64,000 bases of DNA from Candidatus Brachybacterium merdavium (GCA_019118275.1 DWZH01000008.1:9908-73907), one strand, 5' to 3'; shown: positions 18,944 to 39,904, numbered from the stretch's first letter. The notes: generated by a model not told the origin, from the letters alone. Made by a program: numbers and translations.

Positions 18944-20227
18944 ATGCCCGGCATGTGGGTGACCGAGCGGACCGTGCAGGTCCCGCTCGATTGGGCGGCG
19001 CCCGACGGAGAGAGGATCGATCTCTTCATCCGGGAGCTGGTGGATCCGGATCGGCGATCCGAGGATCTTCCTCTGCTCACCTACCTGCAGGGCGGTCCCG
19101 GAGGCGCGAGTCCCCGCCCCGTGAACGGCTCCGGGGGCTGGCTCGGGGAAGCCCTGAAGCACTACCGGGTGATCCTGGTCGACCAGCGCGGCACGGGCTC
19201 GAGCACTCCGATCGAGGCCGTGGACGTGCAGGGGAGAGGCGATGCGGACGCGGGAGCCGACTATCTGTCGATGTTCAGAGCCGATTCGATCGTGCGCGAT
19301 CTCGAACATGTGCGCACCACGGTGTACCAGGAGAAGAAGTGGGCGCTGATCGCCCAGAGCTTCGGAGGCTGGATCACCCTCACGTACCTCTCCTTCGCGC
19401 CCGGCGGGCTCACCGCCTGCTACATCCACGGCGGTGTCCCGGGAACGCCCCCTTCTGCGGCCGAGGTCTATCGGCGCACGTTCCGCCGCGTGCAGGAGAA
19501 GACGACGGAGTACTACCGCCGGTACCCGGGGGACGCCGAGCGGGTCGCGGAGATCGCGGACCTGCTGGCGAGCGAAGAGGTCCGGCTTCCCGATGGTGAC
19601 CGCCTCACTGTTCGCCGATTTCAGTCACTGGGCATCGACTTCGGCATGAAGCCAGGATTCGAGCGGATGCATTGGCTCCTCGAGGGGGCCCTTGCTCGCC
19701 CCGGACGCTTCTCCCACGGATTCCTGGAGCAGGTCCAGACCCGCACCTCCCAGGCCGGCAACCCTTTGTTCTGGACACTCCAGGAGAGCATCTACGGCAC
19801 GGCAGGGGGAGGCGCCACCGCGTGGGCGGCGCAGGCCGAGCGGGACCGACGCCCCGAGTTCTCGGAGGCGAATCGTCCCCTCCTGTTCACAGGAGAGATG
19901 GCGTTCCCCTGGATGTTCGAGGAGATTCGGCTCCTGCGCGGTTTCGCACCTGCCGTGCACCGGCTCGCGGAGCGCGAGGACTGGCCGGCGCTGTACGACG
20001 AGACCAGGTTGGCGGAGAACGAGGTCCCGGTCGCCGCAGCGGTCTTCTACGACGACATGTACGTGGACGCCCAGCTCCAGCTGGACACACTGTCCCGAGT
20101 GGGCAGCTCGACGTACTGGGTGACCAACGAGTTCGAACATGACGGCATCGGAGCCGACCGCACCTTCTCGCGCCTGCGAGAGCTCGTCCGTGACCGCGGT
20201 GGGGAACGAACAGGAGAAATGAAGTGA
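18944..20227 (+). CDS. prolyl aminopeptidase-type alpha/beta hydrolase (S33 family)
   Basis: YLQGGPGG (the HGGPG-type oxyanion motif of proline iminopeptidases) and nucleophile elbow AQSFGGW. Start at ATG 18944; a GTG at 18911 is an in-frame alternative. The upstream part of the listed 691-aa ORF is antisense to the ROK gene. Confidence 0.8.
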   Translation: MPGMWVTERTVQVPLDWAAPDGERIDLFIRELVDPDRRSEDLPLLTYLQGGPGGASPRPVNGSGGWLGEALKHYRVILVDQRGTGSSTPIEAVDVQGRGDADAGADYLSMFRADSIVRDLEHVRTTVYQEKKWALIAQSFGGWITLTYLSFAPGGLTACYIHGGVPGTPPSAAEVYRRTFRRVQEKTTEYYRRYPGDAERVAEIADLLASEEVRLPDGDRLTVRRFQSLGIDFGMKPGFERMHWLLEGALARPGRFSHGFLEQVQTRTSQAGNPLFWTLQESIYGTAGGGATAWAAQAERDRRPEFSEANRPLLFTGEMAFPWMFEEIRLLRGFAPAVHRLAEREDWPALYDETRLAENEVPVAAAVFYDDMYVDAQLQLDTLSRVGSSTYWVTNEFEHDGIGADRTFSRLRELVRDRGGERTGEMK

Positions 20228-21678
20228 CGACCGACAGCATCCACGATCAGCGACCGCCCTATGCGGGCACCCGCCCGCCCCGGCTGAGCGAGATCCCGGC
20301 ATTCGTCGACCACATCGCACGGGACTGGGGCCATCGGTCCGTCCCGGTCGCGCTGCCCGAGGGCACCGAAGCGGCCGCGGCCGAGCACCGGCGTCGACTG
20401 AGCCATGCGCTCCCCGGCCGGGCGATCGTCGCCGCCGCCGGCACCGCGCCGATCCGCAACGATGACAGCGCCTATGGCTTCCGGGCCGACAGCGACTTCG
20501 TCTGGCTGACCGGAGTGCAGGTCGAGGGCGCGGTGCTGGTGATGACCCCGACGGCGGGAGGGCACGACTCCACCGTGTACCTGCCGCCGCCGCTGCGTCC
20601 GGGCACGGAGGGATTCTTCTCCGATGCTCTCCACGGTGAGCTCTGGGTCGGATCCTCGCCGGGGATCGAGGAGTGGTCGCGAGCACTGGATCTCCCGGTC
20701 AGGGACATCGCAGAACTCGAGACGGCCACGATACGCAGCGCCGAGGGGCCGGCGTGGAGCACGCGTGTGGTCCCCGAAGCGCTCCGCGCTCAGCACGGGC
20801 TCGAGGTCTCCCAGGAACTGCGTCGCACCCTTTCCCAGCTGCGCATGATCAAGGACGAATGGGAGATCGAGCAGCTGCGCCACGCCGTGGACGCGACCGT
20901 GGGCGGTTTCGCTGCGGTGGCGACCGAGATCCCACGAGCTCTGGCTCAGGGCCTCGGCGAACGCTGGTTGCAGGGCACCTTCGAGCGGCACTCGCGGACG
21001 CACGGGAACGGACCGGGCTATTCCACCATCGTCGGCTCCGGGCCGAACGCCCCGATCCTGCACTGGACGCGCTGCGACGGGCCGATCCTGCCCGACAGTG
21101 CCCTTCTGCTGGACATGGGCGTGGAGGCCCGGAGCCTCTACACGGCGGATGTCACCCGTACGCTCCCGGTCTCGGGGACCTTCAGCACTGCCCAGCGACG
21201 GGTGCACGATCTCGTGGAACGCTCCCACCGCACGGCGATGAGCCACGTCCGCCCCGGGGTGAACTACCTGGAGTTCCATTTCGCCGCCATGGAGGTGCTG
21301 GCCCAGGGGCTGCACGACTGGGGGATCCTCCCCGTCTCCGTCGACGAGGCGCTGTCCCCCGCGGGCCAGCAGCATCGGCGCTACCTGGTCTGCGGGATCG
21401 GCCACCACCTGGGACTGGACGTGCACGACTGCTCACAGGCCCAGTGGGAGGACTACATGGGCGCTGACCTCGAGGCCGGCATGGTGATGACCGTCGAGCC
21501 CGGACTGTACTTCCACGAGAACGACCTGACCGTCCCCCCGGAGCTGCGGGGGATCGGCGTCCGTCTCGAGGACGACCTGCTGCTCACGGCCAGCGGGGCC
21601 GAGGTGCTCTCGGAGGCCCTGCCCATCGATGCCATCGGCATCGAGAACTGGACCCGCTCCCACGCGAGCTCTGCATGA
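20224..21678 (+). CDS. Xaa-Pro aminopeptidase (M24B, aminopeptidase P family)
   Basis: AMP_N segment FRADSDFVWLTG. M24 metal ligand contexts are LLDMGVEARSLYTADVTRT, GHHLGLDVHD, VMTVEPGLY and GIGVRLEDD. The GTG start overlaps the preceding stop (GTGA at 20224-20227). Confidence 0.9.
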   Translation: MTTDSIHDQRPPYAGTRPPRLSEIPAFVDHIARDWGHRSVPVALPEGTEAAAAEHRRRLSHALPGRAIVAAAGTAPIRNDDSAYGFRADSDFVWLTGVQVEGAVLVMTPTAGGHDSTVYLPPPLRPGTEGFFSDALHGELWVGSSPGIEEWSRALDLPVRDIAELETATIRSAEGPAWSTRVVPEALRAQHGLEVSQELRRTLSQLRMIKDEWEIEQLRHAVDATVGGFAAVATEIPRALAQGLGERWLQGTFERHSRTHGNGPGYSTIVGSGPNAPILHWTRCDGPILPDSALLLDMGVEARSLYTADVTRTLPVSGTFSTAQRRVHDLVERSHRTAMSHVRPGVNYLEFHFAAMEVLAQGLHDWGILPVSVDEALSPAGQQHRRYLVCGIGHHLGLDVHDCSQAQWEDYMGADLEAGMVMTVEPGLYFHENDLTVPPELRGIGVRLEDDLLLTASGAEVLSEALPIDAIGIENWTRSHASSA

Positions 21679-26819: not shown

Positions 26820-27716
26820 TCATAGTGCGGCGTCGTCGGCCGCGCCGCTCCTGAGCACCCGGTTCCGGCGTCGCGCGGCCTCCCATTCGGGATCGATCCG
26901 CGGCACTGCAGAGAGCAGGGTGCGGGTGTAATCGTGCTGCGGGTCTCCGAACACGTCATCCCGGGGACCGCTCTCCACGATCCTGCCAGCGCTCATGACC
27001 GCGACCCGGTCCGCGATCTGTCGCACCACGGCGAGATCGTGGGCGATGAACAGATAGCTGAAGCCCTCCTCCTCGCGCAGCCGGCGTAGCAGGTTGATCA
27101 CCTGTGCCTGCACCGAGACATCGAGCGCGGAGACGGCCTCGTCGCAGATCACGAGCTTGGCGTCGACGGCGAGCGCACGGGCGATACCGATGCGCTGCGC
27201 CTGGCCCCCGGAGAACTGCGAGGGGAGGCGGGACGAATGGTCCGGGTTCAACCCCACCCTCTCCATCAGCCCTCGGGTGAAGTCCCGCGCCCCTCCCGGG
27301 ATCTTCCGCTTCTGGTACACGAGCGGCGCAGTCACCAGCTTCTCCACCGTATGCCGAGGGTTGAGCGAGGAGTAGGGATCCTGGAAGACCACCTGGACAC
27401 TGCTACGGAACGGTCGCAGCGCCCTGGCCCCGAGCTGCCCCACCTCCTGGCCCTCGAAATGGATCTCGCCGCCATCGACGTCCATCAGACGCGCGAGCAT
27501 CCGAGCGGTCGTCGACTTCCCTGAACCCGACTCGCCGACCAGGGCCAGCGTCTCGCCGTATCCGATGGTGAGTGAGACGTCATCCACTGCGCGCACCGTG
27601 CGCCGACGTGCGCCGACACCGTCACCGGCGACCTTGAACTCCTTGACCAGGTTCGTGGCCTCCAACAGAGGAGTCGTCTCCTGTCCGGCGGGCGCCGGTC
27701 CTGCTGAGCCGTTCAT
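26820..27716 (-). CDS. peptide/oligopeptide-type ABC transporter ATP-binding protein (DppF/OppF-like)
   Basis: Walker A LALVGESGSGKST, signature FSGGQAQRIGIARAL, Walker B LVICDEAVSALD, and a C-terminal oligopeptide-ABC extension (HDYTRTLLSAVP). Confidence 0.9.
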   Translation of the reverse strand: MNGSAGPAPAGQETTPLLEATNLVKEFKVAGDGVGARRRTVRAVDDVSLTIGYGETLALVGESGSGKSTTARMLARLMDVDGGEIHFEGQEVGQLGARALRPFRSSVQVVFQDPYSSLNPRHTVEKLVTAPLVYQKRKIPGGARDFTRGLMERVGLNPDHSSRLPSQFSGGQAQRIGIARALAVDAKLVICDEAVSALDVSVQAQVINLLRRLREEEGFSYLFIAHDLAVVRQIADRVAVMSAGRIVESGPRDDVFGDPQHDYTRTLLSAVPRIDPEWEAARRRNRVLRSGAADDAAL

Positions 27717-28588
27717 GGCTGGGCTCCTTCCGCGTCGAGGGTGCGCAGGGCCCCGATCTCGTCATCGATCCGCGGCACCGCGTCCAGCAGGAGCTGCGTG
27801 TACTCGTGCTGGGGGTCGGAGAAGATCTGCTCGGCTGTGCCCTTCTCCATGACACAGCCCTCGCGCATCACGACGATGTGCTCGGTGACCTCGCTGACCA
27901 CGGCCAGGTCATGGGTGATCATGATCAGCCCGACTCCCGTCTCCTCGCGGAGCTCGGACATCAGGTCGAGGATCTGCGCCTGCACCGTGACGTCCAATGC
28001 CGTGGTCGGCTCGTCGGCGATGAGCAGCTCAGGCTCCATGCTCAGTGCCATCGCGATCATCACGCGCTGCCGCATCCCACCAGAGAACTGGTGAGGATAG
28101 TGGTCGACCCGGCGGGCTGCGTCGGAGATGCGCACCCGGTCCATGGCCTCAATCGCGACCTTCCGGGCCTCCTTCCTGCTCACGCCGCGTCGATGCGAGC
28201 GGTACGCCTCCTCGATCTGCAGTCCGACGGTGTAGTACGGGTTCAGCGACGAGAGCGGATCCTGGAAGATCATCGCAATCCGGTCGCCGCGCATCCGACG
28301 CATTGCGGCGTTCCCGAGCTCGCTGAGCTCGGTCCCGTCGAAACGGAGGGAGCCGCTGCGTTGCCCGCCCTTGGGAAGCAGGTCCATGATCGCCAGGCTG
28401 GTCATGGACTTGCCCGAGCCGGACTCCCCGACGATTCCGACAGCCCCGCCGCGGGGGACGTCCAGGTCGAGGGACTTCACCACCTCGGTCCGTCCCTCGG
28501 CGGTCGGGAAGCTCACGGTGAGGTCTCGGACCTCGAGGAGATTCCCCTCTTCGGAGTTCGGTGCGGTACTGCGCGCGGTCTCAGGCAC
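27713..28588 (-). CDS. peptide/oligopeptide-type ABC transporter ATP-binding protein (DppD/OppD-like)
   Basis: Walker A VGIVGESGSGKSM, signature FSGGMRQRVMIAMAL, Walker B LLIADEPTTALD. It has 4-nt and 8-nt overlaps with the flanking genes. Confidence 0.9.
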   Translation of the reverse strand: MPETARSTAPNSEEGNLLEVRDLTVSFPTAEGRTEVVKSLDLDVPRGGAVGIVGESGSGKSMTSLAIMDLLPKGGQRSGSLRFDGTELSELGNAAMRRMRGDRIAMIFQDPLSSLNPYYTVGLQIEEAYRSHRRGVSRKEARKVAIEAMDRVRISDAARRVDHYPHQFSGGMRQRVMIAMALSMEPELLIADEPTTALDVTVQAQILDLMSELREETGVGLIMITHDLAVVSEVTEHIVVMREGCVMEKGTAEQIFSDPQHEYTQLLLDAVPRIDDEIGALRTLDAEGAQP

Positions 28589-29573
28589 TGATCCTCACCC
28601 TCGGGTCGATCACGGAGTACAGAAGGTCGATCACCATGTTCCCGACGATCACGAAGAAGGCGGCCAACAGGGTGACCCCCATGATCACCGGCTGATCGTT
28701 CTTCGTGATCGAGTCAGCGGCGAGCTTGCCGATCCCGTTGAGACCGAAGACCGTCTCGGTGATCAGCGCGCCGCCGAGCAAGTTCGCGAAGTCCATCCCG
28801 AACATGGTGGCGATCGGTGTGAGGGCGGGACGCAATGCATGCCGTCTCCACACCAGGTCCTGGCGAAGGCCCTTCGCCCGGGCAGTGCGCACGTAGTTCT
28901 GCTGGAGGGTGTCGATGACGTTCGCGCGGGTCAATCGGGTGTACGTCGCGGCCGCGCCCACTGCCAGTACGACCCACGGCATCAGGAAGTTCAGGAACCA
29001 CTGCACCGGATCCTCGCCGATCGGCAGCGCCTGCGGGAAGGGCAACCAGCCGAGCACCACGACGAGCACGAACTGCAGCACGAGCGCGAGGACATAGTTC
29101 GGGATCGACATCCCGCCGAGCGTGAGGCCGGCGAGGAAGCGGTCCAGGAAGCGCCCCTCGTGGACAGCGCTCAGCACACCGGCGATGAGCCCGGCGAGCA
29201 GCCACAGGACGGCGGCACCGATGGCCAGGGTCGCCGAGACCGGGAGCCGCTGCATGAGCATCTCGGTCACCGGCTGACTGGTCTGGAAGGAGTAACCGAG
29301 GCAGGGAGCGGCGCACTGGACCGCCCCCTCCCCGACTCCGTAGGTACGGCCGACGAACAGGCCGGTCAGGAAGGTGGTGAACTGCTCGAGGAAGGGCCGG
29401 TCCAGCCCGAGATTGAGGCGGATCTGGTCGATGCGCTCCGGTGTGCAGTTCTTCCCGCAGACCTGGACCGCGGGATCCGGGGACAGCACGAAGAAGACCA
29501 CGAAGGTGAACAGGCACACGACGAAGAGCACGCCGAGCATGCCCGACGTCCGGCCGACGAGGAATCTGGTCAT
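28581..29573 (-). CDS. peptide-type ABC transporter permease (DppB/OppB-like)
   Basis: The N-terminus MTRFLVGRTSGMLGVLFVV...LGLDRPFLEQF is typical of OppB/DppB. It has six TM segments and a BPD_transp_1 core (YVRTARAKGL). Confidence 0.9.
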   Translation of the reverse strand: MTRFLVGRTSGMLGVLFVVCLFTFVVFFVLSPDPAVQVCGKNCTPERIDQIRLNLGLDRPFLEQFTTFLTGLFVGRTYGVGEGAVQCAAPCLGYSFQTSQPVTEMLMQRLPVSATLAIGAAVLWLLAGLIAGVLSAVHEGRFLDRFLAGLTLGGMSIPNYVLALVLQFVLVVVLGWLPFPQALPIGEDPVQWFLNFLMPWVVLAVGAAATYTRLTRANVIDTLQQNYVRTARAKGLRQDLVWRRHALRPALTPIATMFGMDFANLLGGALITETVFGLNGIGKLAADSITKNDQPVIMGVTLLAAFFVIVGNMVIDLLYSVIDPRVRISA

Positions 29574-30541
29574 GATCGGATCCCTCCAGACTCGCTGAGG
29601 ACCTTGACGCGGTCACCGAGCACGGTGAACGAGAACACCAACAGGAACAGGAAGGCGCTCGGGATCAGGAAGTAGACGGGATCGACCGCGTACCAGGTCA
29701 CCGAGTTGGCGATCATCTGCCCCCAGGACGGGGTGGGCGGGACGACGCCGACGCCCAGGAAGGACAGTCCGGCCTCGGTGCCCACATACCCCGGGATCGC
29801 CAAGGTCGTCATCACGATGATGGTGGGGGCGAGGTTGGGCAGGATCTCCCGGAATACGATCTGCAGGCCGGTCGCTCCGGAGGCCCGGGCGGATTCCACG
29901 AACTCATGCTCCTTGAGGGACAGAGTCTGCGCACGCACGATGCGGGCGAGATAGGGCCATCCGAAGATGGAGATCACCAGCACCAGCAGCACCTGGCGGT
30001 TCTCCGCAGGCAACGCCGACAGCACGGCGATCATGAAGATGAGCGCCGGGAAGGCCATGAGGAACTCCATCAGGCGGGAGATGATCGCGTCCACCATCCC
30101 GCCGAAGTATCCCGACAGCAGGCCGAAGACGACCCCCAGGGCGCTGGTGAGCAGCGTCGCCGAGAGCGCGATGGTCATCGAGATCCGGGCGCCGTAGACG
30201 ATGCGGGCGAAGATGTCGCGACCGTTGCCCGGTTCGACGCCGAACCAGTGCTCACCGCTGATGCCGCCGCCGGTTCCGAGGGGGAGACCGCCGAGGCTCG
30301 GATCGATCGCGGACTGATCGAACTCGTAGGGTCCCCACCCACTGAGCTTCACGATCAGCGGGGCGAAGATCGCCATGAGGATCACCAGGACGATGTAGGC
30401 CGCCGACAGCACGGTCGGCACGTCCCGACGCAGGGCAGCCAGGAAGCGCCTGACCCTGTGCGGACGAGGGCCGTCGGGGCCGAGGGCGGCGGAGTCCTCC
30501 GACCGGCCCTCGGCCTCGAGTGAAGTGGGAAGCGCAGCCAT
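29570..30541 (-). CDS. peptide-type ABC transporter permease (DppC/OppC-like)
   Basis: OppC-type segment HWFGVEPGNGRDIFARIVYGARISM and an EAA-like loop FVESARASGATGLQIVFREILPN. There is a 4-nt overlap with the next gene. Confidence 0.9.
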   Translation of the reverse strand: MAALPTSLEAEGRSEDSAALGPDGPRPHRVRRFLAALRRDVPTVLSAAYIVLVILMAIFAPLIVKLSGWGPYEFDQSAIDPSLGGLPLGTGGGISGEHWFGVEPGNGRDIFARIVYGARISMTIALSATLLTSALGVVFGLLSGYFGGMVDAIISRLMEFLMAFPALIFMIAVLSALPAENRQVLLVLVISIFGWPYLARIVRAQTLSLKEHEFVESARASGATGLQIVFREILPNLAPTIIVMTTLAIPGYVGTEAGLSFLGVGVVPPTPSWGQMIANSVTWYAVDPVYFLIPSAFLFLLVFSFTVLGDRVKVLSESGGIRS

Positions 30542-30544: not shown

Positions 30545-32239
30545 TCAGCCCTGCGACGGGTCCTCGAGCCCGATGATCGTCAGATCGGTCATGCTGGTGC
30601 TCGGGTGGAAGCCGGCGATGTTCTCACCGGGCAGGAAGAGTCCCTTCTCGAGCGCCAGTGGGGCGATCGGCGCCTGCTCCATGATCTGCTCGTCGAGCTC
30701 GCCCCAAGCGACGTTGGCCTCCTCGAGATCCTCCATCGCCATGATCTCGTCGATGCGGGTGTTGATGGCCTCGTCGTCGATCTGCGCGAGGTTGCCGTTG
30801 CCCTTCTCGACGATGTTGCGCCCATCGAACAGCGGTGGGATGAACGTGCTCGCACTCGATGCCCAGTCTGGGCACCAGCCGCTGATCGCGGCGTCATTCT
30901 GCTGCGAGGGCGTGCCGATCGTCTCGTAGTAGGAGGAGGTGTCGATGACGTTGAGGTTCACCGTGACGTCCAGCGGTTCCAGCGCCTGCTGGATCGACTC
31001 GGCCTGAGCCTGCATCTTCGGCTGCGAGCGGATGTCCAGGGTGAACTCGAACCCGTCGTCCACTCCCGCCTCCTCGAGCAGCTCACGGGCCGCTTCGAGA
31101 TCTCCCTTGCCGTCGACACCGGGATAGAGGTCGAAGTCCTTGTGACCATTGACCGTCGGGGGGAGGATCGCGGTGGCAGGATCCGCGAGCTGGGTGCCGC
31201 CGGAGGCGTTGACGACGGCCGAACGGTCGATCGCGAAGTTGATCGCCTGGCGGACACGCACGTCGGAGAACACCTCGGACGTGGTGTTCATGCTCATGTA
31301 CGTGAGGCAGTACGCCGGGGCTTCGACGACACGCTCGGAGACCCTCGGATCCTGCAGGCGAGGCAGCGTGGAGGCCTGCAGGGTGCCGGAGATGGCGTTC
31401 GCGTCGGCTCCCTGGCCGGCGATCATCCGCTCATCGATGGTCGACTGGTCGAGGCCGACCTCGAACTCCCACGCATCCGGGTACGCCTTCCGCACATCAT
31501 CGGTGGCAGGATCCCAATTCTCGTTGCGCACCAGGGAGATGGAGCTGCCGGGCGTGTAGCTCTCCAGGTCGTAGGGACCGGAGGACACGATGTCGCTGAG
31601 GAACTCGTCCCCGTCGCCGGTTCCCTCCGGGAAGGGCACGGCATTGGCCTGTGCGAGCACAGCGTCGAACTCGGGGAACGGGGCCTTGAGGTGGAAGACG
31701 ATGGTCTTCTCATCCGGCGTCTCGATCGTGGGGATGTCTCCGGTCCGGTACGGACCCTCGTAGTCGTCGGGGGCGTCGATGACCTGCTTCACCCAGGGCG
31801 AGCCGATGCCGATCTCCGGGTCCCAGGCGCGGGAGATGCCGAACTTCATCTCCGCCGAGGTGATCGGGTCGCCGTTGTCGAACTTGATGCCGTCCTTGAG
31901 CGTGTAGGTCCATGTCAAGCCGTCGTCGGACACCTCGCCGAGGCCTGTCGCGAGATCGGGGACGATCTCGTTGGGATCATCCGCGTCACCGGCCGTCTGC
32001 ATGGTCAGGCCCCGATAGACGAGGCGGTAGAAGGCATTCACGCCTCCGTCGAAACCGCGGGCGGGATCGAGGTAGGAGAAGTCGGAGTTCTGGAGCATGT
32101 GCACGGTGCCACCGGTCGCCGGCTCATCGCTGGCACCCTGCTCGCCTCCAGGCCCTTCACCGGCTTTGCCTCCGCAGGCGGCCAGGAAGACCATCGAGGC
32201 GGCGCCCACGGCCACCAATCTCTTCATCGGGATTCTCAT
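30545..32239 (-). CDS. ABC transporter substrate-binding lipoprotein, family 5 (peptide/nickel/oligosaccharide type)
   Basis: Start placed at ATG 32239 (MRIPMKRLVAVGAASMVFLAACGG, a lipobox), preceded by GAGAGGA. The body (564 aa) has the SBP_bac_5 layout (FYRLVYRGLT.., TWTYTLKDGIKFDNGDPITS). The listed 693-aa ORF has an implausible Cys/Arg-rich 129-aa extension. Confidence 0.85.
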   Translation of the reverse strand: MRIPMKRLVAVGAASMVFLAACGGKAGEGPGGEQGASDEPATGGTVHMLQNSDFSYLDPARGFDGGVNAFYRLVYRGLTMQTAGDADDPNEIVPDLATGLGEVSDDGLTWTYTLKDGIKFDNGDPITSAEMKFGISRAWDPEIGIGSPWVKQVIDAPDDYEGPYRTGDIPTIETPDEKTIVFHLKAPFPEFDAVLAQANAVPFPEGTGDGDEFLSDIVSSGPYDLESYTPGSSISLVRNENWDPATDDVRKAYPDAWEFEVGLDQSTIDERMIAGQGADANAISGTLQASTLPRLQDPRVSERVVEAPAYCLTYMSMNTTSEVFSDVRVRQAINFAIDRSAVVNASGGTQLADPATAILPPTVNGHKDFDLYPGVDGKGDLEAARELLEEAGVDDGFEFTLDIRSQPKMQAQAESIQQALEPLDVTVNLNVIDTSSYYETIGTPSQQNDAAISGWCPDWASSASTFIPPLFDGRNIVEKGNGNLAQIDDEAINTRIDEIMAMEDLEEANVAWGELDEQIMEQAPIAPLALEKGLFLPGENIAGFHPSTSMTDLTIIGLEDPSQG

Positions 32240-32456
32240 TCTCGGTCCTCTCGCGGGACGGATAGAACAATTCGGTGACGGCCCTGGCGTGGACCCCACT
32301 CCGTCATGGGTCGCCCTCGCTCGGCCGAAGGTGCACTGCGTCACCTGGGTACGGTGTAACATGCCACATGACAGCCGCGTCGTAAAGTGGCAACCGCTCT
32401 GAGACCGAACTGTTACCTGATTCCGGTGCCGCCGACTCCGTAGGAACGTCGGGGTT

Positions 32457-32671: not shown

Positions 32672-34147
32672 ATGACATCCCCCCTGCCCACCCCTGTCCG
32701 CACTCATGCCTTCATCAACGGCGAGTTCGTCCCCTCGGCCTCCGGGGCGACGTTCGAGTCGGTGAATCCTGCGACCGGGGAGGTGCTGACCGAGATCTCC
32801 TCATGCGATGCAGAGGACGTCGATCGCGCGGTCGCCGCAGCGGGCGCGTCCTTCGCGTCCGGCGTGTGGAGCCGTATGCACCCCTCCGATCGCCGAGAGG
32901 TGCTGATGCGCCTGGTGGCGCTGCTGGAAGAGAACCTCGAAGACCTCGCGCTGATGGAATCCATCGATGCGGGCAAACCGATCACCGATTGCCGTGAGTT
33001 CGATCTGCCGGACACGATCGGCTCCATCCGGTGGTACGCCGAAGCGGCCGACAAGGCCTTCGGCAAGACGACGGCTGCGGGTGACGACGCCCTCGGGCTG
33101 ATCGTCCACGAACCCATCGGTGTGGTCGGCGCCGTCCTGCCGTGGAACTTCCCGCTGGCGATGCTGGCGTGGAAGCTCGGCCCCGCCCTCGCCGCGGGGA
33201 ACTCGGTGGTCGTCAAGCCTCCGGAGCTGGCCACATTGACCACGTTGCGCTTCGCGGAGCTGGCAAGCGAGGCCGGGCTCCCCGACGGCGTGCTGAACGT
33301 GGTCCCGGGCCTGGGCCACGTGGCAGGGAAGGCACTGGGCCTGCACGCGGACGTCGACATCATCTCCTTCACGGGCTCGAACGAGGTGGGCCGGGAGTTC
33401 CTGCGCTATTCGGCGGATTCGAACCTCAAGAAGATCGTCCTGGAGCTCGGCGGGAAGGCGCCCCAGATCGTCACCGCGGACAATGCCGACCGACTCGCGG
33501 TCGTCGCGGAGGACCTCGCCGAAGCCGCTTTCGGCAACAACGGTCAGAACTGCACGGCGGGGTCCCGGATCCTGGTGCACTCATCCATCGCCGAGGACTT
33601 CATCGACGAGCTGGTCAAGGCGACGAACTCGTTCGTGGTCGGCGATCCGCTCGACCCTGCCACGACCATCGGCTCGCTCGTGGAGGAGTCCGCCCTGGCG
33701 CGCGTGACCGAGTACGTCGACGCCGCGGTGGCGGACGGCGCCACGGTCAGGGCCGGCGGGAAGCGAGTGCTCGAGGAGACCGGAGGCTGGTTCTATCCGC
33801 CGACGGTGGTCACCGACGTGCGCGAGGACATGGCGATCGCTCGGGATGAGATCTTCGGGCCGGTCGTGGTGGTGCTGCCGTTCGATGACGTGGCCGATGC
33901 GGTCCGGATGGCCAACGACACGCCCTTCGGGCTCGCGGCCAACGTCTGGTCCCGGGACATCGACGACGCACTGGGGACGGCGCGCGCCGTCCGGGCAGGG
34001 ACCGTCTCCGTGAACGGCTACTCGGAGGGCGACATCACGACGCCCTTCGGTGGATACAAGGAATCCGGCTTCGGGGGGCGTGACAACGGGATGGAAGCCT
34101 TCGAGCAGTACACCGAGACCAAGACCATCTGGGTCAACCTCCGATGA
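32672..34147 (+). CDS. NAD(P)-dependent aldehyde dehydrogenase (context: alpha-ketoglutarate semialdehyde dehydrogenase candidate)
   Basis: ALDH motifs LPWNFPL, LELGGKAPQIV (catalytic Glu) and FGNNGQNCTAGSRIL (catalytic Cys). 491 aa. Confidence 0.9.
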   Translation: MTSPLPTPVRTHAFINGEFVPSASGATFESVNPATGEVLTEISSCDAEDVDRAVAAAGASFASGVWSRMHPSDRREVLMRLVALLEENLEDLALMESIDAGKPITDCREFDLPDTIGSIRWYAEAADKAFGKTTAAGDDALGLIVHEPIGVVGAVLPWNFPLAMLAWKLGPALAAGNSVVVKPPELATLTTLRFAELASEAGLPDGVLNVVPGLGHVAGKALGLHADVDIISFTGSNEVGREFLRYSADSNLKKIVLELGGKAPQIVTADNADRLAVVAEDLAEAAFGNNGQNCTAGSRILVHSSIAEDFIDELVKATNSFVVGDPLDPATTIGSLVEESALARVTEYVDAAVADGATVRAGGKRVLEETGGWFYPPTVVTDVREDMAIARDEIFGPVVVVLPFDDVADAVRMANDTPFGLAANVWSRDIDDALGTARAVRAGTVSVNGYSEGDITTPFGGYKESGFGGRDNGMEAFEQYTETKTIWVNLR

Positions 34148-34187: not shown

Positions 34188-35081
34188 ATGACAGATTCGA
34201 CGATGCGCGGGGTCTTCGCGGTGTCGACCACACCTTTCCGGCGCGACGGCGAGCAGGACCTCGACGTCTATGCGGAGGGGGTCCAACGGGTGCTCGATGC
34301 CGGCGTCGACGGCATCCTCGCGCTGGGCGCCACGGGCGAGGCGCTGACCTTGGACCCGGGCGAACGGGAAGCACAGGTGCGCCGGCTCGTGGAGGTCGTG
34401 GACGGTCGCGTACCGGTCGTCGTCGGCTGCATGGGATACCGGCCCGAGGCGGTCTCGGCGATGATCGCCGATGCGCACCGATGGGGCGCATCCGGCGCCA
34501 TGGTGACCCCCTCCTTCTATGGCGGCCTGCAGCCCGAGGCCGCGGCCGCTGCGCTGGCGCCGGTCCTGGAGCGTGCCGAGACGCCGATCATGCTCTACAA
34601 CAACCCCGGTGCCACGGGCGTGGACCTGTTGCCTGCGCACATCGGGGAGCTGGCACGGCACGAGTCGCTCTGGAGCGTCAAGGAGACGTCCGGAGCGGCC
34701 ACGCGGGTGCGGGAGCTGCGCGAGGAGCTCGGGGATGGCGTCGAGGTCTTCGTCGGAGCCGACGGGCTCGCGTTGGAGGGCCTCACCCAGGGCGCGAGCG
34801 GGTGGGTCGCCGCATCGGCCTGGCTGACCCCCACTCGCTGCGTGGACCTGTGGCGGGCGGCCGACGAGGAGCGTTGGGGGGATGCCGTCCAGCTCTGGGA
34901 CGGCCTCGCCGGCCCGCTGGGTCGGATCGAGTCCGATCCCGCGTTCATCTCCTTGATCAAGCGGGCTCTGGACGAGCTCGGGCTGGAGCAGGGGCCCGTC
35001 CGGCCCCCGTTGCCCACGGCGACGGATGCAGCGGTCCAGTCGGTGCTCTCCGCCCTGCGTTCCCTCGGAGGCAAGCACTAG
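34188..35081 (+). CDS. dihydrodipicolinate synthase family protein (context: Delta1-pyrroline-4-hydroxy-2-carboxylate deaminase candidate)
   Basis: DapA/NAL-family motifs GILALGATGE and MLYNNPGATG. 297 aa. It lies 40 nt downstream of the aldehyde dehydrogenase. Confidence 0.85.
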   Translation: MTDSTMRGVFAVSTTPFRRDGEQDLDVYAEGVQRVLDAGVDGILALGATGEALTLDPGEREAQVRRLVEVVDGRVPVVVGCMGYRPEAVSAMIADAHRWGASGAMVTPSFYGGLQPEAAAAALAPVLERAETPIMLYNNPGATGVDLLPAHIGELARHESLWSVKETSGAATRVRELREELGDGVEVFVGADGLALEGLTQGASGWVAASAWLTPTRCVDLWRAADEERWGDAVQLWDGLAGPLGRIESDPAFISLIKRALDELGLEQGPVRPPLPTATDAAVQSVLSALRSLGGKH

Positions 35082-35089
35082 AGCTGCCC

Positions 35090-35160: not shown

Positions 35161-36654
35161 TCAGCGGGACGAGGCCGAGCCCGGCTGTTCCCCGTCGGTG
35201 TGCTCCGCTGCGAGGGCACCCAGGGACAGCGGCATGGCGAATGGGCGGTTGGAGACCTGGCGCGCCGCAGCGTGGTCGCCGTCCGAGCGGGCAGCGGACT
35301 GCGACGACAGGCACGCCATCGCGAAGCCGCAGATCCGTCCCTGACACATCCCCATGCCGGCACGCGTGCTCCCTTTCACGGAGCGCGGGTCCGCGAGAGC
35401 GAGGTCATCGCGTGCGGTGGTGACCTCTTCGTAGGTGACCTCCTCACAGCGGCACACCACGGTCTCGTCCCGCATCCAGTCTTCCCACCGTCGCGGCACC
35501 GGATGTGCGTGGTGCATGGCGCCGGCGAAGGTTCGGTGGCGTGCTCGGGCTGCGGCATCGCGGCGTCGTCCTGTGCCGGACTGGGCAGCGGCTCGGCCGG
35601 CGACCCGGCCCTCGGCCACGGCGCCAGCCGCGCCCGTGACGCCCGTGATCTCCCCGGCGAGGAACAGGCCGGGGATCGAGGATTCCTGGGAGCCGTCGAC
35701 TACGCCCACGAGGGAGCCGTCACCGTCCAGCCGTGTCTCAGCGCCGGTCTGCATCAGCAGCTCCGTCTGTGGGACGAACCCCCATCCGAGCCCGACGACA
35801 TCGATGTCGTCCAGGACGCGAGCGGAACCTGCGACCACGGCGCCGGCCGCGTCGACACGCGAGACCTCCACCGCGCGGACCCGGTCCTCCCCGCGGATCT
35901 CGGTCACCGCGTGGCGGCGGAGGAAGGGGACTCGATGGCGCGCCAGCAGGCTCGTGTACTGAGCGCCCTCGGTGATCTTCGAGGGGACCAGGGCGGCCGA
36001 GGCGCCGCCCGGGAGCCAGCCGGTCAGGTCGGTGGATTCGCAGATCGCAGCGACCCGCGCGCCCGTCTGGAGGACCGTGGCCGCAGCCGCCATCAGGAAG
36101 GGGCCGGTGCCGGCGAGCAGCACTCGCTGACCGGGTGAACGCCGCTGGGTCTTGATGAAGGCCTGCACGCTGCCCGCCGACATGACTCCGGGCAGGGTCC
36201 AGCCGGGAACGGGCAGCTGCCGGTCGTAGGCGCCCGGGCACAGCACGACCCTCTCCGCGGCGATCGTGCACAGATCCTGGGGGCCGACCGCTTCGGAGGT
36301 GGGGGCGACGTGGACGTCGAACCCTCCGGCATGCCCATGGTCCAGGGCCCAGACGTGAGTGGAGGGCAGGTGCGTGAGATGCCCCGCGTGTTCGGCGCCG
36401 AGGAGCGTGTCACGCAGCTCGCGGTAGGTCGACCAGCCGTGATGCCAGCGCGGTGACGGTGCCGACGGTGAGTCGTCAGCAGCGCCGTGGCGCCAGTACT
36501 GGCCTCCGAACCGGGGAGAGCCGTCCACCAGGGTGACGTGGGTGCCGGCACGCACCAGTTCTGCGGCGGCCGCCAGGCCCGCGGGGCCGGCACCGATGAC
36601 GACGGCGCCGATGGGGGCGGTCCCTGCGGTCATCGGCTCAGCCATGAGCAGCAT
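35161..36654 (-). CDS. FAD/NAD(P)-binding oxidoreductase with BFD-like [2Fe-2S] segment (large subunit of a three-subunit D-hydroxyproline dehydrogenase/opine-oxidase-type enzyme)
   Basis: Two dinucleotide-binding motifs (AVVIGAGPAGLAAAAEL and VLLAGTGPFLMAAA), a BFD-like Cys cluster (VVCRCEEVTYEEV ... GMGMCQGRICG). The start overlaps the small-subunit gene. Confidence 0.8.
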   Translation of the reverse strand: MLLMAEPMTAGTAPIGAVVIGAGPAGLAAAAELVRAGTHVTLVDGSPRFGGQYWRHGAADDSPSAPSPRWHHGWSTYRELRDTLLGAEHAGHLTHLPSTHVWALDHGHAGGFDVHVAPTSEAVGPQDLCTIAAERVVLCPGAYDRQLPVPGWTLPGVMSAGSVQAFIKTQRRSPGQRVLLAGTGPFLMAAAATVLQTGARVAAICESTDLTGWLPGGASAALVPSKITEGAQYTSLLARHRVPFLRRHAVTEIRGEDRVRAVEVSRVDAAGAVVAGSARVLDDIDVVGLGWGFVPQTELLMQTGAETRLDGDGSLVGVVDGSQESSIPGLFLAGEITGVTGAAGAVAEGRVAGRAAAQSGTGRRRDAAARARHRTFAGAMHHAHPVPRRWEDWMRDETVVCRCEEVTYEEVTTARDDLALADPRSVKGSTRAGMGMCQGRICGFAMACLSSQSAARSDGDHAAARQVSNRPFAMPLSLGALAAEHTDGEQPGSASSR

Positions 36655-36964
36655 CCCCCGGTCGGGCCGAAGGCTCCCCCGGCGCGTCCGTGGTCGACCC
36701 GGTCGACACCTCCATCCCGTCGGCCACCTCCACCAGACAGGTCCGCTGAGACGCCCTGCCGTTGATGGTGGCCAGGCAGTCGTAACAGACGCCTATGCCG
36801 CAGAAGAGGCCTCTGGCCGAGCCGGAGCGGCGAGTGCTGCGCCAGGCCATGCGTTCCTGATCGAGCAGGAGGGCGGCGGCGACCGTGCGCGTCACCGGGA
36901 CGCGGAGCGGAGCACCGTCGATGGTGATGGTCACCGACCGGCCGGTCGTGGAAGAGGAATTCAC
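36638..36964 (-). CDS. (2Fe-2S)-binding small subunit (HcnA/SoxA-N-like)
   Basis: 108 aa from GTG 36964, which overlaps the stop of the upstream gene (GTGA). It has the pattern TIDGAPLRVP...GLFCGIGVCYDCLATINGRASQRTCL typical of the small 2Fe-2S subunit. The listed 432-aa ORF upstream of this point is a shadow of the 36961-38148 gene. Confidence 0.7.
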   Translation of the reverse strand: MNSSSTTGRSVTITIDGAPLRVPVTRTVAAALLLDQERMAWRSTRRSGSARGLFCGIGVCYDCLATINGRASQRTCLVEVADGMEVSTGSTTDAPGEPSARPGDAAHG

Positions 36965-38148
36965 AGATCGTCTCCTTCGTCGATCGTCTGCGCGCCGCCT
37001 GTCGGCTCGCCGAACCGTTCCGGCGCGAACGGTGCGAGGTCCAGATCGGTGGGTGCGCCGCTCAGCGCCTGAGCCATGAGCTTCCCGGTGCCCACGCTCA
37101 GGCCGATGCCCGCCCCCTCGTGCCCGCCGGCATGCCAGAGGCCGTCCGCCCGCGGGTCCGGGCCGAGGACCGGCACGTGGTCGGGGGAGTAGGGACGGAA
37201 CCCGTGGTAGTGCCGGATGACCTTGACGTCCCGCAGGAAGGGGAACAGCGAGGTCGCGTTCGCCGCTATGCGCCGGAGTGCGTCGCGGTTCACCGCCTCG
37301 CTGAAGCCGACGCGTTCGCGCGAGGAGCCGATGAGGATCGAGCCGGCGGGAGTGCCCTCGACCACCGGTGAGCACTGCAGGGACGAGGCCGAGGAGCCCA
37401 CGTCGTCGATGTACTCCGCGGCGTACACCTTGTGGAAGACGCGAGGCGGCAGGGGTTCGGTGACCATGACGTAGCCGCGGCGGGGCGCGATCGGCAGGTG
37501 GACGCCTGCGAAGCGCGCTATCTCGGCGGCCCAGGGCCCTGCCGCGTTGACGACCGCATCGGCGTGGAGGTCCCCGGCGGGGGTGCGGACCCCGCTGATC
37601 CGACCGCCGCTGTGGAGCATGCCGGTGACTTCGCGGCCGCTGAGGACCTCGGCGCCGCGGGACCGAGCCATCGCCAGCAGGTGCGAGACGACCAGCATCG
37701 GCATCACCTGCGCGTCGTCGGGGTAGAGGGCTGCGCCGACGGCGTCGTCCCTGAGATGCGGCTCCAGATCCGCCAGTTCCGCGGAATCCACCTCGGTCAC
37801 GGAGATCGCATGCCGGCGCTGAGCCTCCAGGGCACGGCGCAGGGACCTCATGCTCTGCTCCTGAGAAGCGACGATGATCCCGCCCTTCTGCTCGAACTCC
37901 CAGGCAGCGCCGTGCTCCTCCAGGTCCTCCTGCCACACTCCCAGCGAGTACGCCGCGAGATCCAGCTCCGGGCCGTGCTCCTTGTCGGAGACCAGGATGT
38001 TCCCCTCACACCGTGATGAGGTCCCGCTGCCCGGCTCACCACGATCCACCACTTGCACCGTCAGGCCGGCTTCGCTGCAGAAGTAGGCGATCGCTGCACC
38101 GACGGCTCCGGCGCCGATGACGAGCACGTCGCTGCCCGTACGACTCAT
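36961..38148 (-). CDS. FAD-dependent oxidoreductase, DAO family (beta subunit of D-hydroxyproline dehydrogenase-type enzyme)
   Basis: N-terminal VLVIGAGAVGAAIAYF and C-terminal GGHEGAGIGLS typical of D-amino-acid-oxidase-family flavoproteins. The start overlaps the GntR stop (ATGA at 38145-38148). Confidence 0.85.
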   Translation of the reverse strand: MSRTGSDVLVIGAGAVGAAIAYFCSEAGLTVQVVDRGEPGSGTSSRCEGNILVSDKEHGPELDLAAYSLGVWQEDLEEHGAAWEFEQKGGIIVASQEQSMRSLRRALEAQRRHAISVTEVDSAELADLEPHLRDDAVGAALYPDDAQVMPMLVVSHLLAMARSRGAEVLSGREVTGMLHSGGRISGVRTPAGDLHADAVVNAAGPWAAEIARFAGVHLPIAPRRGYVMVTEPLPPRVFHKVYAAEYIDDVGSSASSLQCSPVVEGTPAGSILIGSSRERVGFSEAVNRDALRRIAANATSLFPFLRDVKVIRHYHGFRPYSPDHVPVLGPDPRADGLWHAGGHEGAGIGLSVGTGKLMAQALSGAPTDLDLAPFAPERFGEPTGGAQTIDEGDDL

Positions 38149-38879
38149 GGGGAGGTGTCCGCAGCGGGGGTGACGACGCTGAGCAGGGGGCGATCGGTCG
38201 AGGGGGCTTCATAGGAGCCTGTCGACCACAGCCGGGACGCGTGGCCGATGTGCCGGCGGATGAGCTCGTAGGCCCCATCGCCATCACTGTCCGCGAGCAG
38301 ATCGAGCAGCTGGTGGTGCTCCTGGGCCGACTCCACCAGACGGCCGCTGTCGGCCAGGGCACGGAGTGCGCGCAGGCGGGTCTGCCCGCGAAGCTGGGTG
38401 GTCGTCTCCACCAGGCGTCGGTTGCCCGTGTAGGTCACCAGGCGGGCGTGGAAGGTCCGGTCCTCGGAGAGGTAGGTGTGCAGATCGCCCTGCTCGGCGG
38501 CGGCGACGATGACGTCGGCGCTCTCTCTGAGCGGTGCGTAGTCCTCCTCGGGCACATGCCCGGCGATCGCGTGCATGGCCGGGCACTCGAGGAGCTGTCT
38601 GACCTGTGTCTGCTCCTCGAGGTCGACAGCGGTCATCTCGGTGATCAGGAAGCCCTTGTTCTTCGCCGTGGTCACCAGGCCTTCGCGGGCGAGGTCCATC
38701 ATCGCCTCACGCACCGGTGTGGCGGAGACTCCCAGCGGGGCCGCGAGGGCCGGGGCGGAGTACAGCTCGCCCTCGACCAGGTCGCCGAGGATGATCGCTG
38801 TCCGCAGGGCGTCCGTGACGGCGCTCCGGAGGCTTCTGAACTGTTGGACCGGTGCCAGCGGGATCTCGCTCGCGGACAT
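38145..38879 (-). CDS. GntR family transcriptional regulator (FadR/FCD subfamily)
   Basis: Start ATG 38879 (MSASEIPL...). wHTH LYSAPALAAPLGVSATPVREAMMDLAREGLV is followed by an all-helical FCD-type C-terminal domain (HHQLLDLLADSD). The rest of the listed 645-aa ORF overlaps the epimerase gene out of frame. Confidence 0.85.
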   Translation of the reverse strand: MSASEIPLAPVQQFRSLRSAVTDALRTAIILGDLVEGELYSAPALAAPLGVSATPVREAMMDLAREGLVTTAKNKGFLITEMTAVDLEEQTQVRQLLECPAMHAIAGHVPEEDYAPLRESADVIVAAAEQGDLHTYLSEDRTFHARLVTYTGNRRLVETTTQLRGQTRLRALRALADSGRLVESAQEHHQLLDLLADSDGDGAYELIRRHIGHASRLWSTGSYEAPSTDRPLLSVVTPAADTSP

Positions 38880-38902
38880 GTCGGCTCCTCTCGACGGGTG
38901 CT

Positions 38903-39904
38903 TCACAGCTCGAAACCCTCGGGATACGGGTCCGTCGGATCGAGCATGTACTGGGCGGTGCCGGTGACCCATGCCCGTCCGGTCACGCTGGGGACCACGG
39001 CCTCGCGGTCGCCGACACTGGTGGTGCCGACGATACGGCCGACGAAGCGCGAGCCGATGAAGGACTCGTTGACGAAGTCGGTCTCGACGGGGAGCTCGCC
39101 ACGGGCGTGGAGCTGCGCCATGCGGGCGCTGGTCCCGGTGCCGCAGGGGGAGCGGTCGAACCAGCCGGGGTGGATGGCCATCGCGTGGCGGGAGTGCCTC
39201 GCGTCCGAGCCGGGCGCGGCGAGGTAGACGTGGTGGACCCCGCGAATGTCCTCGCGCTCGGGGTGGACGGGCTCGTCGGCGGTGTTCAGCGCCTCCATGA
39301 TCGCCAGACCGGCGGCGAGCAGCCGGTCCTTCTGACGGCGGTCGAAGGGCAGGGCGAGGTCTTCGAGCTCGACGAAGGCGTAGAAGTTCCCGCCGAAGCC
39401 GAGGTCGTACGGGACGGTGCCGAGACCGGGCACCTCCACGTGCGCGTCGCGTCGCATCAGGAAGGAGGGCACGTTCGTGAGCGTCACCGATTCGGCGCGG
39501 CCGTCGCGGACGGCGACCTCGACGACGACGAGGCCGGCCGGGGTGTCCAGGCGGACCGTGGTGACCGGCTCGGTCACCTCCACCATCCCGGTCTCCACCA
39601 GCACTGTCGCGGCGCCGATGGTGCCGTGGCCGCACATGGGCAGCAGCCCGGAGACCTCGATGTAGAGCACACCCCAGTCGGCGTCCGGCCGGGTGGGAGG
39701 CTGCAGAATCACCCCGCTCATCGCGCTGTGCCCGCGCGGCTCGCGCATCAGCAGCTTCCGCAGTCCATCGCGATGCTCCATGAACCACAGCCGGCGGTCG
39801 GCCATGGTCTCCCCCGGGATCGGGGGCACGCCGCCGGTGATGACGCGGGTGGGCATGCCCTCGGTGTGCGAGTCGACGGCGTGGTAGATGTGCGTGGTGC
39901 GCAA
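38903..39904 (-). CDS. 4-hydroxyproline 2-epimerase (proline racemase family)
   Basis: Proline-racemase family over its whole length (HTEGMPTRVI, NVPSF). Both catalytic Cys are present (LPMCGHGTIG and DRSPCGTGTSA), which indicates an epimerase/racemase rather than the Cys/Thr dehydratase subtype. Confidence 0.9.
   Translation of the reverse strand: MRTTHIYHAVDSHTEGMPTRVITGGVPPIPGETMADRRLWFMEHRDGLRKLLMREPRGHSAMSGVILQPPTRPDADWGVLYIEVSGLLPMCGHGTIGAATVLVETGMVEVTEPVTTVRLDTPAGLVVVEVAVRDGRAESVTLTNVPSFLMRRDAHVEVPGLGTVPYDLGFGGNFYAFVELEDLALPFDRRQKDRLLAAGLAIMEALNTADEPVHPEREDIRGVHHVYLAAPGSDARHSRHAMAIHPGWFDRSPCGTGTSARMAQLHARGELPVETDFVNESFIGSRFVGRIVGTTSVGDREAVVPSVTGRAWVTGTAQYMLDPTDPYPEGFEL

Follow-up and report, generated by a model that had tools for sequence, protein, structure and literature searches.

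Why would genes for the catabolism of trans-4-hydroxyproline (Hyp) stand next to glycosidases, proline-specific peptidases and a peptide-type importer? The question is raised by a 21-kb locus (positions 18944-39904) in a stretch of 64,000 nucleotides (nt) from Candidatus Brachybacterium merdavium (GCA_019118275.1 DWZH01000008.1:9908-73907), which was analysed at its full length and which we refer to as the window. A first-pass annotation of this DNA had proposed that the locus is a coupled functional unit. We find that several orders of actinobacteria have the arrangement in common and that its parts share an operator, and we consider it rather probable that the locus constitutes a HypR-controlled system that salvages Hyp-rich, arabinosylated peptides originating from hydroxyproline-rich glycoproteins of plants or algae. 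The proposed unit thus stands, held together by cross-genus synteny and a shared HypR-type operator, and changes in composition: its core glycosidase resembles glycoside hydrolase (GH) family 146, a GH127 enzyme is an accessory, and nearby galactan genes do not belong to it.

Since the window has a G+C content of about 70%, genes were called from third-position GC content and frame plots, and the called genes were assigned to families with Pfam and NCBIfam profile scans. All genes of the first-pass annotation are present where it had placed them (Table 1), and the limits it had set fall on gene boundaries: the first gene has an in-frame ATG at position 18944, and the epimerase gene, on the minus strand, starts at 39904. 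Four transcription units make up the locus. The first encodes an alpha/beta hydrolase, an M24B aminopeptidase and a glycosidase of 939 residues, with 4-nt start/stop overlaps at both junctions that indicate translational coupling. The second encodes a substrate-binding protein (SBP), two permeases and two ATPases of an ATP-binding cassette (ABC) transporter, followed after a gap of 307 bp by the GH127 gene, which may be co-transcribed with the transporter genes. The third consists of an aldehyde dehydrogenase and a DHDPS-like gene, and the fourth of the epimerase, a GntR/FCD regulator and the beta, gamma and alpha subunits of a D-Hyp dehydrogenase. Rfam and tRNA scans gave no match inside the locus. 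The closest proteins from named organisms are 68% identical, and contigs identical to that of the window occur in several metagenomes.

Is this arrangement more than a peculiarity of one genome? The first-pass annotation had expected GH127, the transporter and the Hyp genes to occur together. With GH127 as synteny anchor, however, no ortholog in Brachybacterium kimchii, B. phenoliresistens, B. sacelli or Curtobacterium was found to adjoin Hyp genes; instead, these orthologs lie in units of a LacI regulator, GH127 and a sugar ABC transporter. GH127 is therefore not part of the conserved core, and the anchor was moved to the GH146-like gene. This yielded 80 loci from 80 species, one genome per species, in about 16 actinobacterial genera, including Glycomyces, Microbacterium, Promicromonospora, Streptomyces, Actinoplanes, Catenuloplanes, Micromonospora, Kineosporia, Leifsonia, Pseudoclavibacter, Nesterenkonia, Sanguibacter and Arachnia. 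Components were counted with tblastn, using the window proteins as queries and a distance of 10 kb from the anchor (Table 1). Both peptidases, the SBP_bac_5 protein and, in about half of the loci, the Hyp genes are conserved around the GH146-like gene, so that the expected co-occurrence is borne out for these components and fails for GH127, which is present in a quarter of the loci and whose own orthologs normally lie in arabinose or sugar-ABC operons. Orthologs are typically 60-80% identical to the window proteins. Most commonly, eight genes in one direction form an operon (SBP, permease, permease, ATPase, ATPase, prolyl aminopeptidase, aminopeptidase P, GH146-like), and the regulator and the Hyp genes adjoin this operon on one side or the other. 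A run of 15-18 genes in one direction, from the SBP to the aldehyde dehydrogenase, is found in Microbacterium foliorum and Glycomyces paridis.

That this adjacency is due to chance or to a lineage-specific accident appears extremely improbable. Such an origin would fit the distribution of the window's genes over both strands and four units, as well as the GH127 lineage of the window, which is elsewhere unlinked to Hyp genes. However, the arrangement recurs in several orders and shares an operator, and none of the window's other neighbouring genes recurs in the 80 loci. In a genome of several megabases, the chance that two single-copy genes lie within 10 kb of each other is, by inference, well below 1%.

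Some of the related loci depart from this pattern. In a relative that is 88% identical to the window, in Sanguibacter and in Pseudactinotalea, a different Opp-type transporter fills the slot between the Hyp genes and GH127 (loci L003-L006, 2075-9872; L089; L093). Its ATPases are fused, its permeases are 24-33% identical to those of the window, and it is preceded by a DUF885 protein whose solved relatives are uncharacterised structural-genomics proteins only. It resembles an exchange of cassettes at one fixed site, and two different Opp-type transporters in one slot argue for selection on the combination. Hyp clusters of Microbacterium (M. foliorum, L091, 14922-15917) have a second GntR gene and, between it and the epimerase, a gene of the ornithine-cyclodeaminase/mu-crystallin type. 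This gene hints at an additional branch for 3-hydroxyproline (pyrroline-2-carboxylate reductase), which is absent from the window. In B. phenoliresistens (L027, 5061-8261), an aminopeptidase P/GH146-like pair adjoins Hyp genes and is divergent from three minus-strand open reading frames of 302, 308 and 448 residues; no tblastn match to the peptide transporter or the prolyl aminopeptidase was found within 10 kb.

If the locus is a functional unit, are its parts also regulated together? In Streptomyces coelicolor, the GntR/FadR-type regulator HypR (SCO6294) represses SCO6289-6293 via the operator CTNTGC(A/C)ATGTCAC (PMC6608401). The first-pass annotation had listed a GntR regulator in the window, and the protein indeed combines GntR and FCD domains, as in the FadR subfamily; its gene starts at an ATG (38879) with a GGAGG ribosome-binding site. 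The 14-nt consensus has a single perfect match in the window, upstream of the epimerase (operator 3 in Table 1), and none of 100 shuffled sequences matched it. A relaxed 12-mer derived from related loci, GT[GA]ACAT[ATG][TCG][TC]A[CT], occurs three times in the 64 kb, where 0.07 matches would be expected, and all three sites lie in promoter regions of the locus; as its degenerate positions were picked after the sites in the window were known, the perfect consensus match is the sole fully independent test. The SelO-like gene on the opposite strand (40007-41668, plus) would overlap operator 3 with its longest open reading frame; its true start is probably further downstream, because the Pfam match starts at residue 47.

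The related loci (1.69 Mb) contain 50 matches to the relaxed pattern, 40 of which lie within 450 nt upstream of the SBP, hypR or beta subunit gene, and 17 loci have sites at the SBP operon and also at hypR or the Hyp genes. A site upstream of the SBP that satisfies the strict pattern is found in 24 of 69 loci. Microbacterium and Leifsonia have a variant of the operator with the core ACATTGCA; more than 20 loci carry it some 100 nt ahead of the SBP gene, and eight carry it ahead of the first Hyp gene. Of the 35 occurrences of the 7-mer ACATTGC (558 kb), 30 fall within the promoters of the SBP or the first Hyp gene. An 11-mer from S. coelicolor was not enriched in the whole window at up to two mismatches (five found, nine expected) and gave no more than 30 sites in the related loci at up to one mismatch, and the signal emerged only with the full 14-nt consensus and the lineage-specific variants. 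Given that the transporter operon and the Hyp genes have operators in common, we predict that the transporter-peptidase-glycosidase operon belongs to the Hyp regulon in several orders, and the locus in the window would be repressed by the HypR homolog it encodes.

What do the glycosidases of this regulon act on? According to the first-pass annotation, the window encodes two GH127 enzymes without signal peptides. Both belong to PF07944 and retain the catalytic motifs, and by eye neither they nor the two peptidases have a signal peptide; the family assignment applies to the 651-residue enzyme. For the 939-residue enzyme, GH127 membership can be ruled out, as sequence and predicted fold both rank the GH146 enzymes BT0349 and Bll3HypBA1 above GH127: among solved structures, phmmer places BT0349 (E 3.6e-48) and Bll3HypBA1 (E 1.9e-36) far ahead of the best GH127 (E 9.5e-11), and Foldseek searches with an AlphaFold model (mean predicted local distance difference test score 76.5) return GH146 at E 1e-28 to 1e-22 versus about 1e-17 for GH127. 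Ranked in this way against solved members, the enzyme is GH146-like. All of 13 homologs keep its E346-x-C348 and C416-C417 motifs, which line up with the ETC and CC of BT0349. The conserved C-terminal region of about 350 residues (~580-939) comprises two or three beta-sandwich domains of the Ig/FN3 type, for which matches to CHB_HEX_C and OmpL47-type models are weak. Such domains are usual on surface enzymes, and this protein lacks a signal peptide; binding of peptides or polyproline is one function they may have.

The 651-residue protein is a GH127 enzyme and, judged by its sequence, a predicted beta-L-arabinofuranosidase, matching Geobacillus Ara127N (E 3e-118) and Bifidobacterium longum HypBA1 (E 7e-98). 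It carries E312 as putative acid/base, E328-x-C330 and C404-A-C406-C407; aligned to 3WKW, its segments wagEay, aEtC and CaCC stand opposite vGEsf, gETC and CACC of HypBA1, whose catalytic and zinc residues are E322, E338, C340, C417 and C418. In B. phenoliresistens and Curtobacterium, its orthologs adjoin araB, araD and araA, which supports an arabinose-releasing role. Nevertheless, it is an accessory, recruited member of the locus: the GH127 genes near the operon derive from at least four lineages, which are at most 45% identical to one another. This repeated recruitment from non-orthologous lineages argues for selection on the combination.

Precedents from both families point to Hyp-linked beta-L-arabinofuranosides on peptides as the likely substrate. 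The GH146 enzymes XeHypBA1 and Bll4HypBA1 are specific for Araf-beta1-Hyp (Araf, arabinofuranose), the last sugar on the backbone, and hydrolyse the very linkage that the locus would have to cleave (PMC10850190; PMC6085000). HypBA1 (GH127) acts on Ara-Hyp, Ara2-Hyp, Ara3-Hyp and beta-Ara2, where Ara stands for arabinose (PMC6085000).

The genes that are coupled to the GH146-like gene point to peptides. The first-pass annotation had recognised two proline-specific exopeptidases, and homology supports both. From the GTG at 18911, the S33 hydrolase has 438 residues, in agreement with the gene call in two related loci. It matches the Arabidopsis prolyl aminopeptidase DM3/PAP2 (AT3G61540; 8JGM/8JGN) over residues 10-414 (E 2.4e-94), with conservation of GGPGG, the QSFGG serine, the DD...Y region and NEF-H, and aminopeptidase activity on Pro-AMC has been measured for DM3. 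It falls far below the cut-off of the NCBIfam prolyl aminopeptidase models and is thus placed in the DM3 subfamily rather than the TIGR01249 type. The M24B protein has AMP_N and Peptidase_M24 domains and matches Escherichia coli aminopeptidase P and relatives at E 1e-51 to 1e-53; the five metal ligands appear by inspection to be present in DMG, TADVTRT, HHLGLDVHD, VEPGLY and RLEDD, judged by the E. coli PepP pattern. The five-gene importer is likewise as first annotated, an Opp/Dpp-type system with a lipobox-bearing SBP_bac_5 protein, two permeases and two oligo_HPY ATPases. The closest solved relative of the SBP is OppA2 of Streptomyces clavuligerus (2WOK; E 1.3e-86), a peptide binder, and we predict a peptide or glycopeptide ligand.

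Could the transporter instead import free beta-arabino-oligosaccharides, with the peptidases and Hyp genes as loosely linked neighbours? Family-5 binding proteins of some bacteria do bind oligosaccharides. Moreover, B. longum imports beta-Ara2 for a cytoplasmic GH127 (PMC6085000). We nevertheless consider this quite unlikely: in about 70 of the 80 loci, two proline-specific exopeptidases stand between transporter and glycosidase within the same operon, the operon and the Hyp genes have a common HypR operator, and GH127 orthologs in an arabinose context use sugar transporters with family-1 SBPs.

The Hyp genes themselves had been described as covering all catabolic steps. This is supported for the epimerase and the three-subunit dehydrogenase, whereas the deaminase and the semialdehyde dehydrogenase are matched at family level only. 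For the epimerase, the top NCBIfam model is 4-hydroxyproline epimerase (364 bits, cut-off 376); it has the cysteine pair C91 (MCGH) and C254 (SPCGTG) and lacks the threonine found in dehydratases, and it may alternatively act as a proline racemase. In the dehydrogenase, the beta-gamma-alpha order and the domains match SCO6289-6291 of S. coelicolor (PMC6608401). Genomic context suggests that the DHDPS-like protein, in which Lys165 (WSVKETSG) is likely the Schiff-base lysine, is a 1-pyrroline-4-hydroxy-2-carboxylate (Pyr4H2C) deaminase, and that the aldehyde dehydrogenase acts on alpha-ketoglutarate semialdehyde. In both M. foliorum and G. paridis, an Aldedh gene likewise stands last among the clustered Hyp genes.

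How, then, might these components work together? Extensin-type proteins would be fragmented outside the cell by enzymes encoded elsewhere than in the locus, and short Pro/Hyp-rich peptides or glycopeptides would be imported by the family-5 lipoprotein and its Opp/Dpp-type transporter. In the cytoplasm, the GH146-like enzyme, helped by the recruited GH127, would strip beta-L-arabinofuranose from Hyp, and aminopeptidase P, which cuts before Pro/Hyp, would alternate with the DM3-type prolyl aminopeptidase, which cuts after it, until free amino acids are released. Free trans-4-Hyp would then pass through the epimerase, the D-Hyp dehydrogenase with its alpha, beta and gamma subunits, the putative DHDPS-like deaminase and finally the aldehyde dehydrogenase to yield alpha-ketoglutarate. 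The GntR/FadR-type HypR homolog would repress all four transcription units through the common operator. We regard salvage of extensin peptides as the most economical reading, because a cytoplasmic GH146-like enzyme, an importer and Pro/Hyp exopeptidases would all be under the control of the Hyp pathway.

Several observations weigh against it. The post hoc choice of degenerate positions in the relaxed operator is one of them. The DHDPS-like protein and the aldehyde dehydrogenase are 30-33% and about 30% identical, respectively, to their counterparts in other loci, and both stay below the equivalog cut-offs of NCBIfam. Among the scanned genes of the window, no secreted protease, GH121, GH43 or arabinose catabolic gene was found. 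The active-site loops in the model of the GH146-like enzyme are of low confidence, and its identity to solved GH146 enzymes is 20-24% and no higher, which makes a separate subfamily possible. This distance also speaks for glycosidases that release another sugar, either a different furanoside or L-arabinose-like residue on Hyp, Ser or Thr, or aceric acid or 3,6-anhydro-D-galactose, as does the nearest NCBIfam model of the GH127, aceric acid hydrolase, even though its score (409 bits) is far under the cut-off of 950 bits. Furthermore, specificity varies within GH127 and GH146 (PMC10850190). However, every characterised GH146 enzyme is a beta-L-arabinofuranosidase (PMC10850190), as are the closest solved relatives of the GH127, whose orthologs lie beside araBDA, and beta-L-Araf is the sole well-known Hyp-linked furanoside (PMC6085000), so that we consider another sugar unlikely.

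The last point against arabinosylated peptides concerns the peptide itself. The HypR regulon of S. coelicolor contains an M9 collagenase (PMC6608401), which shows that Hyp regulons can serve animal collagen. The locus might accordingly salvage unglycosylated Pro/Hyp-rich peptides such as Gly-Pro-Hyp from collagen or gelatin, with glycosidases co-located for an unrelated sugar. For such peptides, the transporter, both exopeptidases and the Hyp pathway would suffice, and OppA2, the nearest solved relative of the SBP, binds plain peptides. What makes this explanation unlikely in our view is the position of the GH146-like gene, which is last in the operon, translationally coupled to the peptidases and accompanied by M24B within 10 kb in 76 of the 80 loci, together with the repeated recruitment of non-orthologous GH127 genes. 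In addition, most carrier genera are associated with soil, litter or plants, and collagen Hyp, to our knowledge, carries no glycan.

A further possibility retains the arabinosylated substrate and changes its purpose. With nutrition being secondary, plant-associated actinobacteria could use the operon to import and quench arabinosylated Hyp-containing plant signalling peptides (CLE/CLV3-type, PSY, HypSys), which bear Hyp-Ara3 and are short enough for an Opp-type transporter, and to catabolise the Hyp released, a role to which we assign a very small chance.

How does salvage of arabinosylated Hyp-rich peptides relate to known systems? The hypBA cluster of B. longum, consisting of HypBA1 (GH127), HypBA2 (GH121), HypAA (GH43), a sugar ABC transporter and a LacI regulator, resembles the locus in its proposed target, a Hyp-linked beta-L-arabinofuranoside, and in a signal-less, cytoplasmic GH127 with a Glu/Cys/Zn site. 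It differs in sugar-type uptake of beta-Ara2, in its surface GH121 and GH43, and in the use of arabinose only, having neither peptidases nor a peptide transporter nor Hyp catabolism, and a different type of regulator. As no GH121 beta-L-arabinobiosidase or GH43 alpha-L-arabinofuranosidase domains were found in the scanned window genes, the locus resembles the final, intracellular part of a hypBA-type system rather than a member of this cluster type. XeHypBA1 (Xanthomonas euvesicatoria XCV2724) and Bll4HypBA1 (B. longum BLLJ_0089) are likened to the 939-residue enzyme by family, as they belong to the GH146 branch of the PF07944 clan. XeHypBA1, however, is a secreted enzyme that attacks the glycoprotein extracellularly, and the 939-residue enzyme of the window differs in its lack of a signal peptide, in about 350 additional C-terminal residues with Ig-like domains and in its translational coupling to peptidases.

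On the side of Hyp catabolism, the S. coelicolor HypR regulon (SCO6289-SCO6294) shares with the locus the beta/gamma/alpha dehydrogenase, a DHDPS-like candidate deaminase, a 333-residue epimerase, a GntR/FadR-type regulator and its operator; it differs in gene order and in having no adjoining transporter, exopeptidase or glycosidase, and 2-oxoglutarate dehydrogenase is a member besides the collagenase (PMC6608401). Other bacterial Hyp clusters follow the same logic of epimerase, D-Hyp dehydrogenase, Pyr4H2C deaminase and alpha-ketoglutarate semialdehyde dehydrogenase (PMC6608401; PMC4113996), but take up free Hyp by amino-acid transporters and lack glycosidases and proline-specific exopeptidases. 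In the open full-text literature, to which our search was confined, we found no report that connects GH127, GH146 or DUF1680 to Hyp epimerase, to the catabolism of Hyp or to these peptidases, and such a glycosidase goes unmentioned in a study of genome neighbourhoods in the proline racemase superfamily (PMC4113996). Each module is thus known by itself; what appears to be undescribed is their union under joint regulation and the cytoplasmic GH146-like subfamily. The closest parallel in principle is the alf-2 operon of Lactobacillus casei, by which a glycosylated amino acid (fucosyl-GlcNAc-Asn) is reportedly imported, deglycosylated and cut in the cytoplasm, with use of both halves; its proteins are unrelated to those of the locus, its substrate is an animal N-glycan and its transporter is of another class.

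Table 1. Features of the locus and of the neighbouring galactan unit, with the occurrence of components near the GH146-like gene in related loci
Feature	Position	Strand	Unit	Domains and remarks	Related loci
Operator 1, GTGACATGGTAC	18863-18874			relaxed 12-mer; 37 nt upstream of GTG 18911	
S33 prolyl aminopeptidase, DM3/PAP2-like (predicted)	18911-20227 (GTG 18911; alternative ATG 18944)	+	1	Abhydrolase_1	70/80
M24B Xaa-Pro aminopeptidase (aminopeptidase P)	20224-21678	+	1	AMP_N + Peptidase_M24	76/80
GH146-like candidate beta-L-arabinofuranosidase, 939 residues	21675-24494	+	1	PF07944 + PF20736; C-terminal Ig-like domains; predicted cytoplasmic	anchor
GH127 (HypBA1-like), 651 residues	24557-26512	-	2	PF07944, PF20736, PF20737, all above cut-offs; predicted cytoplasmic	20/80
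Opp/Dpp-type ABC ATPases, two	27713-28588 and 26820-27716	-	2	ABC_tran + oligo_HPY	68-69/80; 63-79% identical
OppB-like permease	28581-29573	-	2	BPD_transp_1 with OppC_N or BPD_transp_1_N	60-83% identical (both permeases)
OppC-like permease	29570-30541	-	2	BPD_transp_1 with OppC_N or BPD_transp_1_N	
Family-5 substrate-binding lipoprotein	30545-32239	-	2	SBP_bac_5; signal peptide, lipobox LAAC	68/80
Operator 2, GTAACATGCCAC	32356-32367			relaxed 12-mer; divergent promoter region of SBP operon and aldehyde dehydrogenase	
Aldehyde dehydrogenase, candidate alpha-ketoglutarate semialdehyde dehydrogenase	32672-34147	+	3	Aldedh, 546 bits	
DHDPS-like candidate Pyr4H2C deaminase	34188-35081	+	3	DHDPS, 148 bits	
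D-Hyp dehydrogenase alpha	35161-36654	-	4	Pyr_redox_2/Fer2_BFD	
D-Hyp dehydrogenase gamma	36638-36964	-	4	small 2Fe-2S	
D-Hyp dehydrogenase beta	36961-38148	-	4	DAO	37/80
HypR-like GntR/FCD regulator (FadR subfamily)	38145-38879	-	4	GntR + FCD; between epimerase and beta subunit	59/80
4-Hydroxyproline 2-epimerase	38903-39904	-	4	Pro_racemase PF05544, 437 bits	42/80; 69-77% identical
Operator 3, CTGTGCCATGTCAC	40016-40029	-		perfect S. coelicolor consensus match; ~112 nt upstream of epimerase start	
GH53 endo-galactanase	5756-7393			long N-terminal extension	
GH42 beta-galactosidase	7424-10024				

The GH53 and GH42 genes, which the first-pass annotation had counted as flanks of the locus, are real. 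They lie about 9 kb off and, together with two permeases, a LacI regulator and an SBP of family 1, form a complete and independent type-I galactan utilisation unit (5756-13883), which is separated from the Hyp locus by five unrelated genes; as they occur in none of the related loci, we have excluded them as members. The upstream ROK, sugar-isomerase and GFO genes, considered as shared with the GH127 neighbourhood of B. kimchii, were dismissed for lack of orthology. A protein of 1320 residues (1608-5570, minus) combines NAGPA phosphodiester-glycosidase and calcineurin-like metallophosphoesterase domains, an unusual pairing. Further downstream, a GH123 glycosidase divergent from a family-1 SBP and two permeases (44738-49895) looks like another small glycan-utilisation unit. 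An Rfam match to the actinobacterial small RNA Ms_IGR-5 (50066-50271, plus; 71 bits, E 8e-14) closely precedes an unannotated gene (50397-51251), after which comes a gene (51248-52648) for a protein that joins a WXG100-like N-terminus to a lipase/PGAP1-like domain.

Hydroxyproline-rich glycoproteins are a nitrogen-rich, protease-resistant fraction of the plant cell wall, of which the characterised Bifidobacterium and Xanthomonas systems use the arabinose alone. If our reading is true, the locus would provide a missing route by which actinobacteria of soil and litter mineralise the protein backbone as well, and the predicted operator would extend the experimentally defined HypR regulon to this route. 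Its carriers include cultivable organisms, namely Microbacterium, Glycomyces, Promicromonospora and some Streptomyces, and they offer a candidate subfamily of cytoplasmic beta-L-arabinofuranosidases that would act on glycopeptides.

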